A DNA stretch of 10,585 nt from a virus, in the UHGV virus genome UHGV-1718691. One strand, 5' to 3'. The translations under genes were made by a program, and so were the position numbers. The notes beneath the pieces were generated by a model that saw only the letters and a program-made list of their open reading frames with translations, made no database searches and was not told the origin of the DNA. Below are positions 2,845-10,568 of this stretch, piece by piece (positions within the stretch are counted from its first letter, which is position 1; the number at the start of each line of letters is the position of its first letter).

Positions 2845-2867
2845 TAAAAAAGGGAGCCGAAGCTCCC
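2845..2867 (-). terminator. Rho-independent terminator immediately after the coat gene
   Basis: Minus strand reads GGGAGC-UUCG-GCUCCC followed by UUUUUUAU. Stem 2852-2857 / 2862-2867 (extendable by an A-U pair 2851/2868), UUCG tetraloop 2858-2861, U-tract from 2845-2850. Starts 8 nt after the coat stop (2876-2878). Confidence 0.75.
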
Positions 2868-2875
2868 TCTGGTTA

Positions 2876-4171
2876 TCACGCAGTCTGGTTAGGCAGGCCA
2901 ACGCCAATTGCCTCTGGTCGTACAGCACATGCTGAATACCACACAGCAATACGGCACTTACCAGACAGAGTGTTGATATCACCCTGCGTTGCGAAGATGC
3001 CGTTAACACCAATGCCAGGAATGCTGAAGGAAGAAGTTTTCATGCCAGCAAACAGTTCATGGGTTACCGGGATCGGCTGAGACAGTAGGCGGATTGAGTC
3101 ATCAGCCCAGAACACGTTAGCGGTGGTTGTTGCCACGTTCAGAACGTTTACCGGAGTGGTATCAGCAAGAGAAGTGTTTACGTTAGCGTAAGCCTTCTCT
3201 TCTTTTGTCAGTGACGCGTCATCCAGTGCAATCGGTTTCGGCGTGATTTCGATGTGAGTACTATCGATCACACGGGTGATTGAGAAAGTTGCATCATCAG
3301 TCAGCACGTTCTTCGCCATCTGAGACAGGAATTTCACACCAGTGAAGCTGATTTTGTCGCCGCGCTTAAATCCGGTGGTGGAGGATACGGTCACCGTTGC
3401 AACACGGTTGTCGACGTTCTCTTTGTTACCATCGGTATCAAGGGTGTATGCCTGCGGCTTAAACTTCTGCGCACCAGACACAGTTACACCAGTAGCGGTT
3501 GACTTGGTAACTGCCGGAAGTTTCGGTGAGCGAAGAATTTCATCAAAGCCAGCAATCTGACGCTGAATAGTACCGTTGCGATACGCTTCTTCAGGAACGC
3601 GCCCGAAGATGTCACCATCTACCAGGTTGCGGCCTGCTTTACGGTAATCGTCAGGGTTCAGGAAGTAACTGATGCCCATATCGCGGTTTAGCTCACGGGA
3701 GAACATCAGGCGCTCTGCATCAGACACAAAATCCCAGCCAGACAGGCCAGTAGATGGACCAATTGCGCGGGTATCGTGAACAACAAGCGAGCCCATTTCA
3801 GTTGCCTGTTTGGCAATCGCTGACTCAATGTTATTCGCCAGTTTTTTGGCGGATGCCTGGATGCGGCGACGGTAAGAACGCTCATCACGCAGGTCATCTG
3901 CACGAAGCTCGAAGAAATCGTTATCCGGATCGCCCATGTTGCACTTCACGGAGAGTTCCAGAATCCCGGTTGCGTTGCCAGTTAAATCCCAGCCAGTCTG
4001 GGTTGGCGCTTCCTGCTCAACAGGCATCCACACGGTGTTGCTTGAACGCTGCATGGATTCTGCCGGAGGGGTGTATTTTGTCACTTTGGACGCCATTGGC
4101 GTCAGGTTCTGGACGGTTTCGATGATTTCATCCAGAGCATACGTGACTAGTTGACCTTCATTTAATGCCAT
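2876..4171 (-). CDS. 5: Major capsid (coat) protein, P22 gp5-like, 431 aa
   Basis: N-terminus [20 protein letters not shown] and C-terminus ...[30 protein letters not shown] match my recollection of P22 coat protein (about 430 aa), as does ...[12 protein letters not shown]...[10 protein letters not shown].... Start ATG overlaps scaffold stop (TAATG). Stop TGA at 2876-2878. Confidence 0.95.
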
Positions 4172-7261: not shown

Positions 7262-8761
7262 TTAAGTTCTCCGTGCGATTGGCCTGATTGGGGCTGGTAT
7301 CTTTTTCTCTTTTGGTTTTTTGATGTCGCGCATCATTTTTGCGAAGCGGCGCATCATGTATGCATAGCGAACGGCGGAGAGAACGTCATCGTTAAGCTTG
7401 ACGATTTTCCCGTTTTCATCACGGTGATAGAGGCGGAACTCCTCAAAGAATGGCTCACAGGTGTTGAATACTTTGAAGCGACCGTCGAGCATCATGTCTC
7501 GCAATTCAGTGATGCCAGGCTCAACAGCGTTACCGCCATCAGGCCATGTCGCATGCTCCTGCAACATCATAAATCCAGCGTCCGCATACTGCCCTTTGAG
7601 CTGCTCACCGCCGCCCTTCTCGTGCTGGTTTCCGTCATGAGGCCATGCGGTTGGCACTTTATGCGCCCATGGTTTAACAGCTCCCCACGCCTGAACGGCT
7701 GTCTTTTCTTTCGCCTTCCAAACGCGTGAAAGGTAGATTATGTCTGCGTCCTTATCCCACCAAAGCTGAACCTGCGCCTGTGGGTGATCCCATCCGAAAT
7801 CCATCCCGCCAATTACGTAGAAGTGATCAGGACACTCGAACGGCTGACACTTAATCGTCTCTTCCGGTATCTGGAAGATTCGACCACTACCCATCGTAGG
7901 AATACCGCGAGCACGCGCCTCTCTCTCATGCTCAGGATAGGATGCGATGATTTGCTCTTTCTGCTCGTCGGTGTAGTGCTCAGCGTCATAGATGGTCATG
8001 TTGACCACTTTCTGCGACTTGCTGGGATTCTTCAGGAACTTGGTAACAACGTCAGACATCCCCATCAGCGGGGTAAACGTCAGAATTGAGAATTGCCCGT
8101 ATTTGTTGGTACGGGTAAGCCCTTCGCCATAAATGCTGTATGGCGGCTCTTCGTCAAACCACACGCCATGGATTGTGTCACCCTGCCAGCGAGCGCGGCC
8201 TTGCGAGTATGGTTTGAAGTAGCAGATTGAAATGCCATCTTCAACGCCATCAGCCGTGTGATGCTTAACCAGAAGATGATCAACAAGGTTCGGAAAGAAA
8301 GGAGACTTCTTCCAGCTAATGATGTCCTCTTTCGGTATTGAACCGTAGCCCGGCTCATCATTCTCTTCAATACGACCGCACAGGATGCGTTGAGTCGTTT
8401 TGGTTACCGTCTCGTTTGTCTCGCCGCCAATCCAGAAGACAACAGGCTCATAGAAACGCTTACCTTTCCACTCACCGCCATATTTACCATCAGCAGGATA
8501 GCCTTTTGTGCCCGGATAACGCCCGGTAAGGTGAAACGCGACTTCAGCAGCACCAGTAAATGACTTACCAAGCTGGTTACCAGCCATAAAACAGCGCTCT
8601 GGATAGTCATGCCCGGCGTCGATGAACTCACGCTGTTTGCTGTATGGCGTAAATTCATATAGCAGGTGTGTGTTCCGGTAGTTCTCTTCTTCTTCGAGTA
8701 GCTCGAGCAATTCGATTTGCTCTTCGTCGCTCAAGTTATCAAGAATCGCGTCCAGTTCCAC
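7262..8761 (-). CDS. 2: Terminase large subunit, P22 gp2-like, 499 aa
   Basis: 499 aa; sequence (MELDAILD...[37 protein letters not shown]...) strongly resembles remembered P22 gp2, with a Walker-A-like GNQLGKS motif. The start codon at 8759-8761 is GTG, 10 nt downstream of AAGGAG, and overlaps the terS 3' end by 23 nt. Confidence 0.95.
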
Positions 8762-9227
8762 GGTTGAATAGCTCCTTGATACGAGAGCGCCGCTTATCGC
8801 GATCTCCCTTATCAGGTGTCACGTCTTCAACTTGCGACTGCTCTTTGAGGCCCAAATCACGGGCGATGATGTTAGCGTTGAGAAGGTCAGCGGCTGCGCC
8901 AGAGAATTTCTGGTCGTAGATGATGTCTTCCGCTCGTGATGTGACGTCAGAAAAACCTTCCATTGACCGGAAGGTTCCCCATGTTTGCCTGGTGATATCA
9001 AGGAAGGTACACAATCCTGAAATAGTCATGGCTCGCATCTTAGGGACATTAGCCTTAATTATTTCTCCCTGATATGAAAATACCTTACCCTCCCATAGCG
9101 GGTTATCATCAGCCCACTCGAAGTATTCACAACAAGCAGCCCACAGCGCCTCAGGCGATTCGAATTTAGGATTTCGCCCATGACTACTGCGGGCCTCCCA
9201 AAATCGGTTGCCCTTTGGTGCTGCCAT
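8739..9227 (-). CDS. 3: Terminase small subunit, P22 gp3-like, 162 aa
   Basis: [38 protein letters not shown]... and C-terminus ...[24 protein letters not shown] match my recollection of P22 gp3 (162 aa). The central segment differs from what I remember of P22, which is where pac recognition maps. Confidence 0.9.
8931..8960 (-). other. Candidate pac (packaging initiation) site inside terS
   Basis: Minus strand GGAAGGTTTTTCTGACGTCACATCACGAGC, encoding [10 protein letters not shown], sits at the position where the P22 pac site lies inside gene 3 and resembles, but is not identical to, the P22 pac sequence as I recall it. Contains the 8-bp palindrome TGACGTCA (8941-8948). By analogy only. Confidence 0.3.
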
Positions 9228-9232
9228 ATTGA

Positions 9233-9304
9233 TTATTTCCCTTCTGCTTGCTTATCCCATTCATCGCGGAATTTGGATGGGTTGTCGAAACCTTGAGTTG
9301 CCAT
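9233..9304 (-). CDS. Micro-ORF (23 codons, [23 protein letters not shown]) between the small acidic ORF and terS
   Basis: ATG at 9302-9304 lies 2 nt after the upstream TAA (9307-9309), with GGAG 7 nt upstream of the ATG inside the upstream gene's last codons. Its TAA stop (9233-9235) is 5 nt before the terS ATG. Geometry suggests translational coupling; may be non-functional. Confidence 0.3.
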
Positions 9305-9306
9305 GT

Positions 9307-9549
9307 TTATGCTCCGGTGGTGAACAGGTCTAACGCTTCCTTCGATTTACGCACCGCTTCGATTGTGCGGGTCGTGATATCTGAATTAGCGCCGCCTGAC
9401 TGGAAGTGAATTTTGAATAGCTCAAGCTTCAGCTCGTCAGTGCCAATGAACTGAAATGCTTCTTCTGCGGCTGCGTTCTGGTTCATGACCAGTTTGTAAA
9501 TCTCTAGCTGGAATTTCTGTTCTTCAGTCATGGGAATAATCTCTGCCAT
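9307..9549 (-). CDS. Small acidic hypothetical protein (80 aa)
   Basis: ATG 9547-9549 with GGAG 6 nt upstream; stop TAA 9307-9309. Product MAEIIPMTEEQKFQLEIYKLVMNQ... has net charge about -5. I recall a small ORF of similar size in this position upstream of gene 3 in P22, but not with certainty. Confidence 0.65.
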   Translation of the reverse strand: MAEIIPMTEEQKFQLEIYKLVMNQNAAAEEAFQFIGTDELKLELFKIHFQSGGANSDITTRTIEAVRKSKEALDLFTTGA

Positions 9550-9701
9550 TGTTGGCTCCGTTTATCCGTTAAAAGGGATATCAGTTAAGTTATCCCGTGT
9601 AGGGTATAAGCCATTGTCGAGACCACTCATTGAATGGCCTCTGCAATAACCGATGTCTTTCCATCAGTCCGCCACCACAAAGAATCTTTTTTGCCTTAAG
9701 G

Positions 9702-9713
9702 CAGGAGCTTCAT
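9702..9713. repeat. Perfect 12-bp palindrome TGCCTTAAGGCA in non-coding spacer
   Basis: Seen directly: TGCCTTAAGGCA equals its own reverse complement; flanked on the plus strand by a T6 run (9696-9701). Operator-like dyad; function unknown. Confidence 0.5.
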
Positions 9714-9906
9714 CTTTCAGTGGCTGCCAGTGTTATTTCCCCACTTACTGGCTTGGGTTGTTTCGTGGTACTGCCGTAACTGGTTGCCAAGAATAAATTC
9801 CGGTTTCATTATCAAGCCCACCCGTAGATGGGCTTTGTAATGGATAGCCGTTGCTCAGTTCTCGTAATGCTTTGATTTTTCCGATAACGCAGTTTTGCGT
9901 TTGCCA

Positions 9907-10428
9907 TCAGCACGCGATATCGAGAGTCAACTGCAGTTGCTCGCGCCAGTACTCAACATTTGCTTCAATAACCGGCTTATCCCATCGCCAGCGAGCCATC
10001 TCTCTTGCCCCATTGCTGGCTTTTGATTTCCGGTCATCGCGAATGCGACATGCTTGCTCATATTTCTGCTGCTCAGTCAGTTCACCGCGAAGCAGACTAT
10101 CAATGTGCAGGTCGCACCACACAGCAAAACGAGCATCACACCAACGGGCAAATGCAACTGAAAGTTTTGGATGTAGCCACGTACCACCACCCCTGTCCTT
10201 TCGTGCCTTGCTGGTTTTTACATACCTCGATTGTGAGGGATGTAAAATTTGAGATTCTTTCCCGGTCAACGCTTCGTCTAAAGCACGAACGTATTCAAGC
10301 GTTTCTGCCAAACGCATCCAGTTATCAATGCGTTTTCCAAATCTCTCAGCAACACCTGTGACGTTGATCCAACCATCAGTGTTGAAACTGACAATTTCAC
10401 CTTTGTAATTAAGTGGCACGATATTCAT
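9907..10428 (-). CDS. KilA-N domain protein (173 aa)
   Basis: N-terminal region ...GEIVSFNTDGWINVTGVAERFGKRIDNWMRLAETLEYVRAL fits the KilA-N/APSES-type DNA-binding consensus as I recall it (D-G-[YW]-[IV]-N-x-T...GK...W). ATG 10426-10428 with an AGGT Shine-Dalgarno-like sequence upstream; stop TGA 9907-9909. Confidence 0.65.
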   Translation of the reverse strand: MNIVPLNYKGEIVSFNTDGWINVTGVAERFGKRIDNWMRLAETLEYVRALDEALTGKESQILHPSQSRYVKTSKARKDRGGGTWLHPKLSVAFARWCDARFAVWCDLHIDSLLRGELTEQQKYEQACRIRDDRKSKASNGAREMARWRWDKPVIEANVEYWREQLQLTLDIAC

Positions 10429-10543: not shown

Positions 10544-10568
10544 AAAAAACATGCGTTGCGGTACGCAT
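10544..10568 (-). terminator. Candidate weak intrinsic terminator upstream of the KilA-N gene
   Basis: Minus strand AUGCGU-ACCGCA-ACGCAU followed by G-UUUUUU (stem 10551-10556 / 10563-10568, U-tract 10544-10549). The stem is only 6 bp with 3 GC pairs. The window edge (10575-10585) reads GGGGCUUUUU on the minus strand, possibly the 3' half of a second, stronger terminator. Confidence 0.4.

Follow-up and report, generated by a model that had tools for sequence, protein, structure and literature searches.

The window analyzed here, i.e., the whole stretch of 10,585 nt, is the late region of a P22-like (Lederbergvirus-type) E. coli prophage, with its late operon on the minus strand. Positions 9590-9860 are 100% identical to the chromosome of E. 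coli MS7163. The object of this work is a non-coding spacer in this operon, surrounded by the following features, given in late order:

9907-10428, minus strand: KilA-N domain gene, upstream neighbor of the spacer (Pfam KilA-N, 77.5 bits)
9550-9906, minus strand: non-coding spacer of 357 bp between the KilA-N and DUF2560 (orf80) genes
9307-9549, minus strand: DUF2560 gene, homolog of P22 orf80, downstream neighbor of the spacer (147.7 bits)
Within the 79-nt gap 9228-9306: 23-codon ORF, after the DUF2560 gene in operon order
8739-9227, minus strand: gp3-type small terminase gene, after the 23-codon ORF
Beyond the small terminase in late order, minus strand: large terminase, portal, scaffold and coat genes

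This position is an accessory-gene slot of P22-like and lambdoid late operons, located between lysis-associated rha/kilA genes and the DUF2560-terminase genes. A previous sequence-only reading of the window described gaps of 0-13 nt everywhere else, which is wrong for the 79-nt gap above and for a gap of 144 nt after the coat gene (2732-2875), the latter with an intrinsic terminator inside (2849-2870).

The same reading took 9550-9906 to be devoid of genes, and this was upheld. Only ORFs of 21-49 codons occur there, none of the small ORFs matches Pfam, ARAGORN found no tRNA or tmRNA gene in the window, and no Rfam family reached its threshold on the spacer in searches at gathering and permissive settings. 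A 30-codon ORF (9717-9809) does not stay open in HK620, L and P22, where indels of 1-2 nt or an insert of 58 bp interrupt it. In a 35-codon ORF beginning with MAKKIL, the ATG is lost in the window, the length of an A-run varies and a stop occurs in P22; the T-to-A change that removes this ATG is the one that creates the “perfect” palindrome discussed below. No long ORF crosses the core of the spacer in any relative compared. A small protein-coding gene was thus rejected on both strands on the basis of indels, lost starts and stops. The spacer as a remnant of the rha 3′ end was also ruled out, since P22 homology halts exactly at the rha stop codon. Two existing annotations are probably artefacts and deserve a flag: the start codon of P22 “orf25” falls inside one of the hairpins described here (copy B), and “orf118” of phage L/ST64T is the DUF2560 gene over-extended upstream through the spacer block, with the GGAG-ATG start context of orf80 retained.

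Spacer DNA is 90-98% identical in 201-209 phage records, among them P22, L, HK620, ES18, HK97-like siphoviruses and Stx2 phages. Of 5426 complete E. coli genomes, 1209 contain the spacer and 2541 contain the combination of a hairpin and the DUF2560 leader (up to 47%). Annotators almost never mark anything in the spacer. Over one set of 21 sequences, the spacer has a nucleotide diversity of 0.018, compared to 0.075, 0.013 and 0.002 at codon positions 3, 1 and 2 of orf80, respectively. Such low diversity points to probable purifying selection on the spacer, with the qualification that mosaic segments may differ in history and coalescence times.

The spacer is a mosaic of at least five modules: relatives differ in the sub-segments they share, breakpoints recur and flanking genes vary. 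P22 has 9591-9777 (ending exactly at the rha stop codon) and 9309-9563 in common with the window; phage L has 9598-9846; HK620 and Dewey have approximately 9301-9846, ending at the stop codon of the upstream gene. In phage L, a 3′ remnant of an hkbL-like gene lies ahead of hairpin A. The segments recognized within the spacer are as follows, again in late order:

9844-9906, minus strand: 3′ flank travelling with the KilA-N gene
9886-9901, minus strand: AACGCA/UGCGUU hairpin, weak (-6.4 kcal/mol), travels with the KilA-N gene
9805-9843, minus strand: hairpin copy A, CCAUUACA-AAGCCCAUC-UACG-GGUGGGCUU-GAUAAUG
9617-9821, minus strand: 205-bp segment (linker, core and most of copy B), missing in about 20% of relatives
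9778-9804, minus strand: variable linker from hairpin A to the core, with a 58-64-bp insertion in HK620-type phages and 1-nt indels
9652-9777, minus strand: conserved core of 126 nt, ending ...GAUGGAAAGACAUC, followed by at least five unrelated continuations in relatives
9692-9703, no strand assigned: palindrome TGCCTTAAGGCA, a T-to-A variant, within the apical portion of the long core hairpin
9610-9649, minus strand: hairpin copy B, paralog of A, UUAUUGCA-GAGGCCAUUC-AAU-GAGUGGUCUC-GACAAUG
9550-9609, minus strand: DUF2560 leader, always after hairpin B, or after A in the fused form
9575-9596, minus strand: GGGAUA/UAUCCC hairpin followed by U4, weak (-8.3 kcal/mol), in the DUF2560 leader
9556-9559, minus strand: RBS GGAG, in the DUF2560 leader

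Part of this mosaic is already documented in P22. Between the positions that correspond to 9563 and 9591, P22 carries a 631-bp pid unit, i.e., the genomic site is common to both phages, and the pid ORF, its promoter Ppid and the pid terminator are all absent from the window. The pid moron is an 86-aa ORFan antisense to the late operon, with a weak promoter, a 174-nt 5′ UTR and its own terminator, and related phages have either no insert or a different insert at the pid site (PMC3573128, PMC8835761). A deletion primer printed in PMC8835761 spans the P22-window junction directly. Since the pid unit of P22 is inserted at 9563/9591 and is missing here, the window represents the empty form of a documented moron slot. 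The conserved hairpins and core that flank this slot are undescribed in the pid papers (PMC3573128, PMC8835761).

The sequence-only reading had drawn attention to four dyad symmetries. Three of them are where it placed them (9886-9901, 9814-9835 and 9575-9596) and the fourth, the 12-bp palindrome, lies at 9692-9703 instead of 9702-9713, i.e., 10 nt off. As to their importance, only AAGCCCA/TGGGCTT (9814-9835) stands, as the inner stem of hairpin copy A and thus as part of a bigger hairpin; the other three are weak (-4.7 to -8.3 kcal/mol) and their structural conservation is not evident. Only 11 of 182 related loci have the palindrome in its perfect form; most read TGCCTTATGGC or AGCCTTATGGC, and TTATGG is a common variant. 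Perfect 6-bp dyads with a loop of at most 20 nt are enriched in the spacer, 7 versus 1.6 ± 1.6 in dinucleotide shuffles (P ≈ 0.01). The z-score of the whole-spacer fold was -6.2 with the fold tool versus -4.0 in a separate scan of 28 equal windows, and the latter value is the lowest of the 28. Global fold energy alone is not decisive because several coding windows are nearly as low (-3.1 to -3.9).

Alignment with P22 and other relatives, proposed as a check of the dyads, disclosed compensatory changes in the GC-rich stem and in one hairpin that had not been listed. The overlooked copy B (9610-9649) came with a clue to paralogy, a divergent variant of 9600-9650, GTTATTACAAAAGCCATTCCCTACAGAGTGGCTTTGATAATGG, whose flanks match those of the hairpin at 9805-9843. 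Copy A has an outer stem of 5 bp and an inner stem of 9 bp, separated by a CA/GA internal loop and capped by a UNCG-type tetraloop. Its folding energy is -20.6 kcal/mol in the late sense versus -16.1 kcal/mol on the reverse strand, and its score against our covariance model, CM R1, is 56.7 bits versus 20.1 bits. The corresponding values for copy B are -18.9 versus -10.2 kcal/mol and 67.2 versus 15.9 bits. CM R1 was built from 28 natural variants and matched only A and B in the window; on the whole genome of HK620 (38 kb), it matched only two sites, the first of which starts at the nucleotide after the hkbL stop codon. The architecture common to A and B is a CAUUR/YAAUG outer stem, a 2×2 CA/GA internal loop and an inner stem of 9-10 bp with a near-invariant U·G pair. 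The loop on top varies: it is AAU in B, CCUACA in a further form, B′, and either UACG or UGCG in A.

The pairing of this module is well maintained. Over the 28 natural variants (A, B and B′), 97.9% of cells pair, against 33-51% in slid controls, and 6 of 15 pairs show two-sided changes. A degenerate pattern scan restricted to one genome per species gave 53 distinct copies from more than 15 Enterobacterales genera, in which 95.3% of cells pair (slid controls, 32-51%), 8 pairs are altered on both sides and the U·G pair is found in 51 copies. Variants of the stem are C-to-U changes that retain G·U pairing in the late sense. Late-sense scores are 57-67 bits versus 16-25 bits in reverse, and late-sense energies are -16 to -21 kcal/mol versus -10 to -16 kcal/mol, which corresponds to a stability advantage of 2-9 kcal/mol over the complements. 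The G·U-keeping variants, together with this greater stability, therefore indicate selection acting either on the late-mRNA strand or on the corresponding single strand of DNA. No copy of the module was found in lambda or in Pseudomonas-type phages. The hairpin module is a previously unannotated, widely conserved RNA hairpin: it corresponds to no Rfam family, to no annotation in the records (including the detailed one of HK620) and to no paper in the literature searched, which yielded none on Proteo-phage-1 either. Overall, the general claim that the spacer is conserved, structured and non-coding is supported.

More specific proposals for the spacer did less well. A scan for sigma-70 promoters and terminators detected neither a promoter-like site nor a terminator on the late strand of the spacer; the plus strand has a single weak promoter-like site (9784-9812) and, coinciding with the palindrome, a single terminator-like site, and no sequence conservation is seen for either. 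Hairpins A and B are trailed by GAUAAUG or GACAAUG, where an intrinsic terminator would have a U-tract directly after its G+C-rich hairpin. BTP1 is a phage that has the core, and in the RNA-seq tables of its lysogen the interval from rha (388358-388963) to pid (389225-389539) is free of annotated ncRNA. An independent small RNA is unsupported in view of the missing late-strand promoter-like site, the missing U-tract of both hairpins and the missing BTP1 ncRNA annotation. An attenuator fares no better: the sole hairpin trailed by U4 (9575-9596) is weak, at -8.3 kcal/mol and with a 10-nt loop.

The module often comes directly after a stop codon. In 30 of 54 distinct upstream contexts, an ORF of 50 codons or more has its stop between -6 and +4 nt relative to the module, most often at 0-2 nt, compared to 5% at random positions. 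The genes upstream are mutually unrelated: Rha, hkbL-like, DUF2560, LysC/Rz1-like, Acb2/Tad1 (anti-CBASS), HNH endonuclease and ORFans. Spacer modules are also found behind Rha, hkbL-like, Rz/LysC and further genes in phages without KilA-N at this position, and a third paralog is located between Q and an HNH gene, behind an ORF of 89 codons. In a few relatives, an intrinsic terminator, and not a stop codon, precedes the module, which is why we do not regard it as simply the 3′ end of the upstream gene. On its 3′ side, the module of E. coli and Salmonella phages has only three types of neighbors, in comparison with the many on its 5′ side, and it could belong to the downstream unit. The number of copies is low: the median is 1 place per E. 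coli genome and the maximum 3-5, all prophage-like, and there are 1-3 copies per prophage.

The interval between A and B behaves as a slot. Its length falls into classes from 0 to approximately 800 nt, and it contains the core alone (as in the window), the core with a 64-bp insert (HK620) or the core with one or two genes. Inserted genes encode a 53-aa ORFan, a 62-aa ORFan, an N4-Gp49/Sf6-66 family protein, DUF551 or an 89-aa ORFan; all of them start 20-35 nt past the invariant end of the core, and a terminator sometimes ends the insert. In the fused form, observed at 28-31 loci and being the arrangement of Stx2 phages, A is joined to the 3′ flank of B, GATAATG|GCTTATACC. One hybrid B copy was also found. 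A reading of the missing 205-bp segment as a MITE with target-site duplication was dropped in favor of A × B recombination, the copies being paralogs. The observation of these natural recombinants between copies is the reason to assign the module a role as a recombination boundary.

The core, located between the copies, starts at the rha stop codon in P22, and at one locus an IS element lies inside it. RNAalifold recovered only modest structure on either strand, and a GCCAGU/ACUGGC hairpin (9726-9752) was discarded because natural variants mostly break its stem. The core bears a weak likeness to the 3′ half of Proteo-phage-1 (RF03044), which is the best Rfam match of the spacer, with 16.8 bits at 9722-9757 on the minus strand against a gathering score of 42; with nhmmer, the same site was the top match of the window (E = 0.025, calculated within the window only). 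The genuine Proteo-phage-1 examples examined score 76-86 bits and are found in Pseudomonas-type phages, as a leader between the NinG/Q side and tRNA/lysis genes. The core, unlike them, is downstream of the lysis cassette and KilA-N. The family model has a P1 with an internal loop and a P2 with a 15-nt loop, GAUAAGCCGGUUAGU, followed by the tail GAAAAAACACCGGCAGCC; in the core, P1 is absent, the loop motif AAGCCAGUAAGUG stands on a 3-bp CCC/GGG stem and 16 of 18 nt of the tail agree. Collinearity extends beyond the Rfam model, to GACUG and a hairpin with a GAAAGA loop, and chained alignments of the core and Proteo-phage-1 have z = 3.1-5.8 over dinucleotide shuffles. BLAST gave no bridge from genuine Proteo-phage-1 to enteric phages. 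We consider a distant relationship credible, and not membership in the family.

We hypothesize, at what we would call an even chance, that the spacer is a conserved non-coding patchwork whose paralogous hairpins punctuate or stabilize the late mRNA and at the same time bound cassette recombination. Hairpins A and B would fold in the late (minus-strand) mRNA; in prophages of Enterobacterales, their module comes immediately behind the stop codons of numerous unrelated accessory genes. A very stable hairpin at such a place, without a U-tract and often capped by UNCG, would act as intercistronic punctuation. Such punctuation could be a barrier to 3′ exonucleases and/or a processing site, protecting the upstream cistron while late transcription goes on. 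Judging from anatomy, a role as stabilizer or processing site is the most likely mechanism. The conserved internal loop and the invariant U·G pair suggest recognition by a protein or nuclease. Alternatively, as a conserved loop and conserved flanks are needless for a generic stabilizer, they may instead reflect common descent and gene conversion. As the near-identical copies lie on either side of the slot, they also function as boundaries for homologous deletion or exchange of cassettes, and natural recombinants show this role. The core would be a conserved leader-like RNA segment between the copies, which is orphaned here because no cassette gene comes after it. Counted against this explanation were the fact that about 20% of relatives do without the 205 bp separating A from B and the absence of the module from lambda.

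It is also conceivable, although unlikely, that the spacer is decaying junk: recombination scars and remnants at a moron hotspot, functionless and conserved in appearance through recent exchange. All copies are 90-98% identical, and so are neighboring genes; the middle 205 bp are deleted in about 20% of relatives; the IS element in the core, the hkbL-like remnant in phage L and the failure to detect a late-strand promoter or terminator would all be in place in such debris. However, spacer diversity is about 4-fold below that of third codon positions next door, changes within the hairpins are compensatory, and only those G·U pairs that form in the late sense are tolerated. Retention of the module in more than 15 genera amid unrelated flanks, with its 5′ edge abutting stop codons, also goes against junk.

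A second alternative places function in the core, with or without the hairpins, as an sRNA or cis leader related to Proteo-phage-1 that regulates late transcription or translation, e.g., via an exposed ACCUCCU anti-Shine-Dalgarno-like loop. RF03044 is the best Rfam match of the spacer, and the likeness is collinear over an AAGCCrGUwAGUG loop, a GAAAwAACACyGGCAGCC tail, GACUG and the hairpin with the GAAAGA loop, at the alignment z-scores given above. Mosaic joints at both ends of the core, as at gene borders, and the fact that inserted cassette genes always come after it would also be in agreement with a leader. Nevertheless, the match is far below the gathering score and its E-value is valid within the window only, hairpin 1 of the family is absent, genuine members are in the late-operon leader and not behind lysis genes, and the helices predicted for the core are disrupted in natural variants. 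Given, in addition, that the BTP1-lysogen RNA-seq annotates no ncRNA here and that about 20% of relatives are without the core, we regard this possibility as distinctly unlikely.

Similarly improbable, in our judgment, is that a dedicated machine recognizes the 40-nt hairpin; this could be an ssDNA recombinase or nuclease, or an RNA-binding protein or RNase of phage or host origin that reads the CA/GA loop and the U·G pair. If true, this would imply a system for cassette exchange or expression control of accessory and anti-defense genes (e.g., Acb2/Tad1) in late operons of temperate Enterobacterales phages. A reading at the DNA level, in which the hairpin is a strand-specific ssDNA site, attC- or REP/RAYT-like, for a recombinase, an HUH/transposase-like enzyme or a homing endonuclease that inserts and exchanges cassettes, is very unlikely. 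In its favor, the 5′ edge of the module is the exact end point of many unrelated genes, the slot carries 0, 1 or 2 genes, inverted terminal CATTA...TAATG surround the conserved mismatch loop and HNH endonuclease genes adjoin three copies. However, no dedicated recombinase is linked to the module, which has 1-3 copies per prophage; the A × B deletion and the hybrid B are explicable by ordinary homologous recombination between 40-bp repeats; and a position on the coding strand right after stops is more natural for an RNA element.

The distance of 0-2 nt from stop codon to stem raises yet another scenario, a translational device in which the terminating ribosome melts the 5′ arm and exposes a purine-rich 3′ arm (GRGUGG) and an invariant AUG, thus coupling or gating downstream translation. 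The 3′ end carries an invariant AAUG, preceded by GRGUGG at a distance of 7-8 nt. In most contexts, however, ORFs from this AUG have just 2-30 codons, a length no shorter than expected by chance, and they are not conserved, the one in HK620-type phages reads MKP-stop, and pairing with CAUU fully accounts for AAUG. The hairpin AUG was accordingly rejected as a gene start, and we hold a translational device to be very doubtful indeed. Finally, the proposal that KilA-N or another dimeric DNA-binding protein uses the dyads, and especially the 12-bp palindrome, as operators is scarcely credible: KilA-N is a DNA-binding domain and the palindrome is perfect in the window, but this is a minority single-nucleotide variant, spacer modules adjoin Rha, hkbL-like and Rz genes where KilA-N is missing, and a strand-asymmetric tolerance of G·U is not expected of a site in duplex DNA.

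Temperate phages have mosaic genomes, and the way in which their modules change places at exact borders is a long-standing question. The punctuating and boundary-forming hairpins that we favor are a concrete and widespread element marking module borders in one accessory-gene slot, with a reach of up to 47% of complete E. coli genomes and more than 15 genera. They make two ideas testable in P22 or HK620, namely that boundary sequences drive cassette exchange and that such sequences persist through a service to the mRNA. In addition, the covariance model offers a search handle for accessory-gene slots in prophages.

Among known systems, REP/BIME elements, the RNase III hairpins of T7 and lambda sib are stable intercistronic hairpins without a U-tract, some of them with an internal loop, which protect or process the upstream message and do not end transcription. 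By analogy, the module is comparable to them as a stable extragenic hairpin without a U-tract between cistrons of a polycistronic mRNA, with putative functions in cleavage or stabilization. It differs from REP/BIME in copy number (hundreds per genome in the latter versus 1-3 per prophage, with 2 in the 38 kb of HK620), in its unrelated sequence and in having no linked RAYT gene. An analogy may also be drawn with integron attC sites, which likewise are strand-specific imperfect hairpins with inverted end motifs behind unrelated promoterless genes; in contrast to attC, the module ends in CAUUA/UAAUG, has no RYYYAAC/GTTRRRY core sites and occurs in very few copies, and no IntI-type integrase was found near the slot in annotated relatives.

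The boundary role of A and B matches the old lambdoid idea of “boundary/linker sequences” (Clark et al. 2001 on HK620; Susskind and Botstein 1978), as cited in PMC3029335. Those sequences are likewise short and common to phages with unrelated flanks at module junctions, and the module shows this behavior in at least 30 distinct upstream contexts, in the A × B deletion forms and in the hybrid copy. What differs is that it is also structured and strand-specific, with compensatory changes. Taken together, these comparisons make the module kin to known kinds, and it is best filed as an intercistronic stabilizer or processing hairpin that is also a lambdoid boundary sequence.

Two annotated genes overlap hairpin B, the downstream copy of the hairpin module in the spacer, and both annotations are doubtful:

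P22-pbi (L006) 1163-1240: putative gene orf25 of P22; hairpin B at 1220-1259
phage L (L005) 801-1157 and SE16 (L008) 943-1299: "orf118" of phage L/ST64T

For orf25, the loop and 3' arm of hairpin B supply the start codon, and the reading frame enters P22-specific DNA; orf25 is probably not a gene. The second, orf118, looks like a DUF2560 gene with an annotation about 38 codons over-long: the extra codons span hairpin B and some of the core, and orf118 contains an internal GGAG-ATG start of the orf80 type.

Genes also adjoin the module closely. In Leclercia and Enterobacter prophages (L258, L273, L236), a gene of 93-94 aa with an Acb2/Tad1-hairpin domain, of the anti-CBASS/anti-Thoeris sponge family, ends 1-2 nt upstream of a module copy, and HNH endonuclease genes directly adjoin three different copies:

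L012 5093-5611: HNH endonuclease gene
Dewey (L004) 2099-2650: HNH endonuclease gene
L247: HNH endonuclease gene

TAG is a rare stop codon. Among the upstream contexts compared, it is over-represented immediately before the module, often as GTAG: the species-level set has it in 9 of 30 contexts, and in the IMG/VR set it occurs in several independent genes.

The core was interrupted in one prophage (L010), where an IS element, its transposase starting MTKNTRFSPEVRQRA..., lies in the A-run at the equivalent of window position ~9685. A further short frame lies outside the spacer:

9233-9304, minus strand: 23-codon ORF between orf80 and the small terminase gene

The start of a 53-aa gene (orf53 of Emek) is 88% identical to it in DNA, and in other phages this gene sits within the hairpin slot, the accessory-gene site bracketed by copies A and B.

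Genuine Rfam Proteo-phage-1 RNAs were located as follows:

L285 4332-4412
Pseudomonas phage phiAH14a (L290) 3001-3213
L289, L282-L284 and L286

They occupy a leader of ~600 nt, with NinG/Q-position genes on one side and tRNA/lysis genes on the other. A terminator immediately precedes them and two more conserved hairpins follow, with ACCUCAC and GAAAGA loops, of which the Rfam model stops short. The annotation of phiAH14a places a reverse-strand CDS across this region.

Two terminator structures were found within the window:

2849-2870, minus strand: AGAGGGAGC-UUCG-GCUCCCUUU followed by UUUUAUC, a strong intrinsic terminator whose loop is UUCG
10551-10568, minus strand: terminator-like hairpin with U6, between the Rz-side gene end and the KilA-N gene

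The sequence-only reading held that all other gaps measure at most 13 nt; this is contradicted by the 144-nt gap after the coat gene (2732-2875), inside the late operon, which contains the first terminator. Its equivalent in HK620 is tGP5, and in phage Emek a rho-independent terminator is annotated at the site matching the second.
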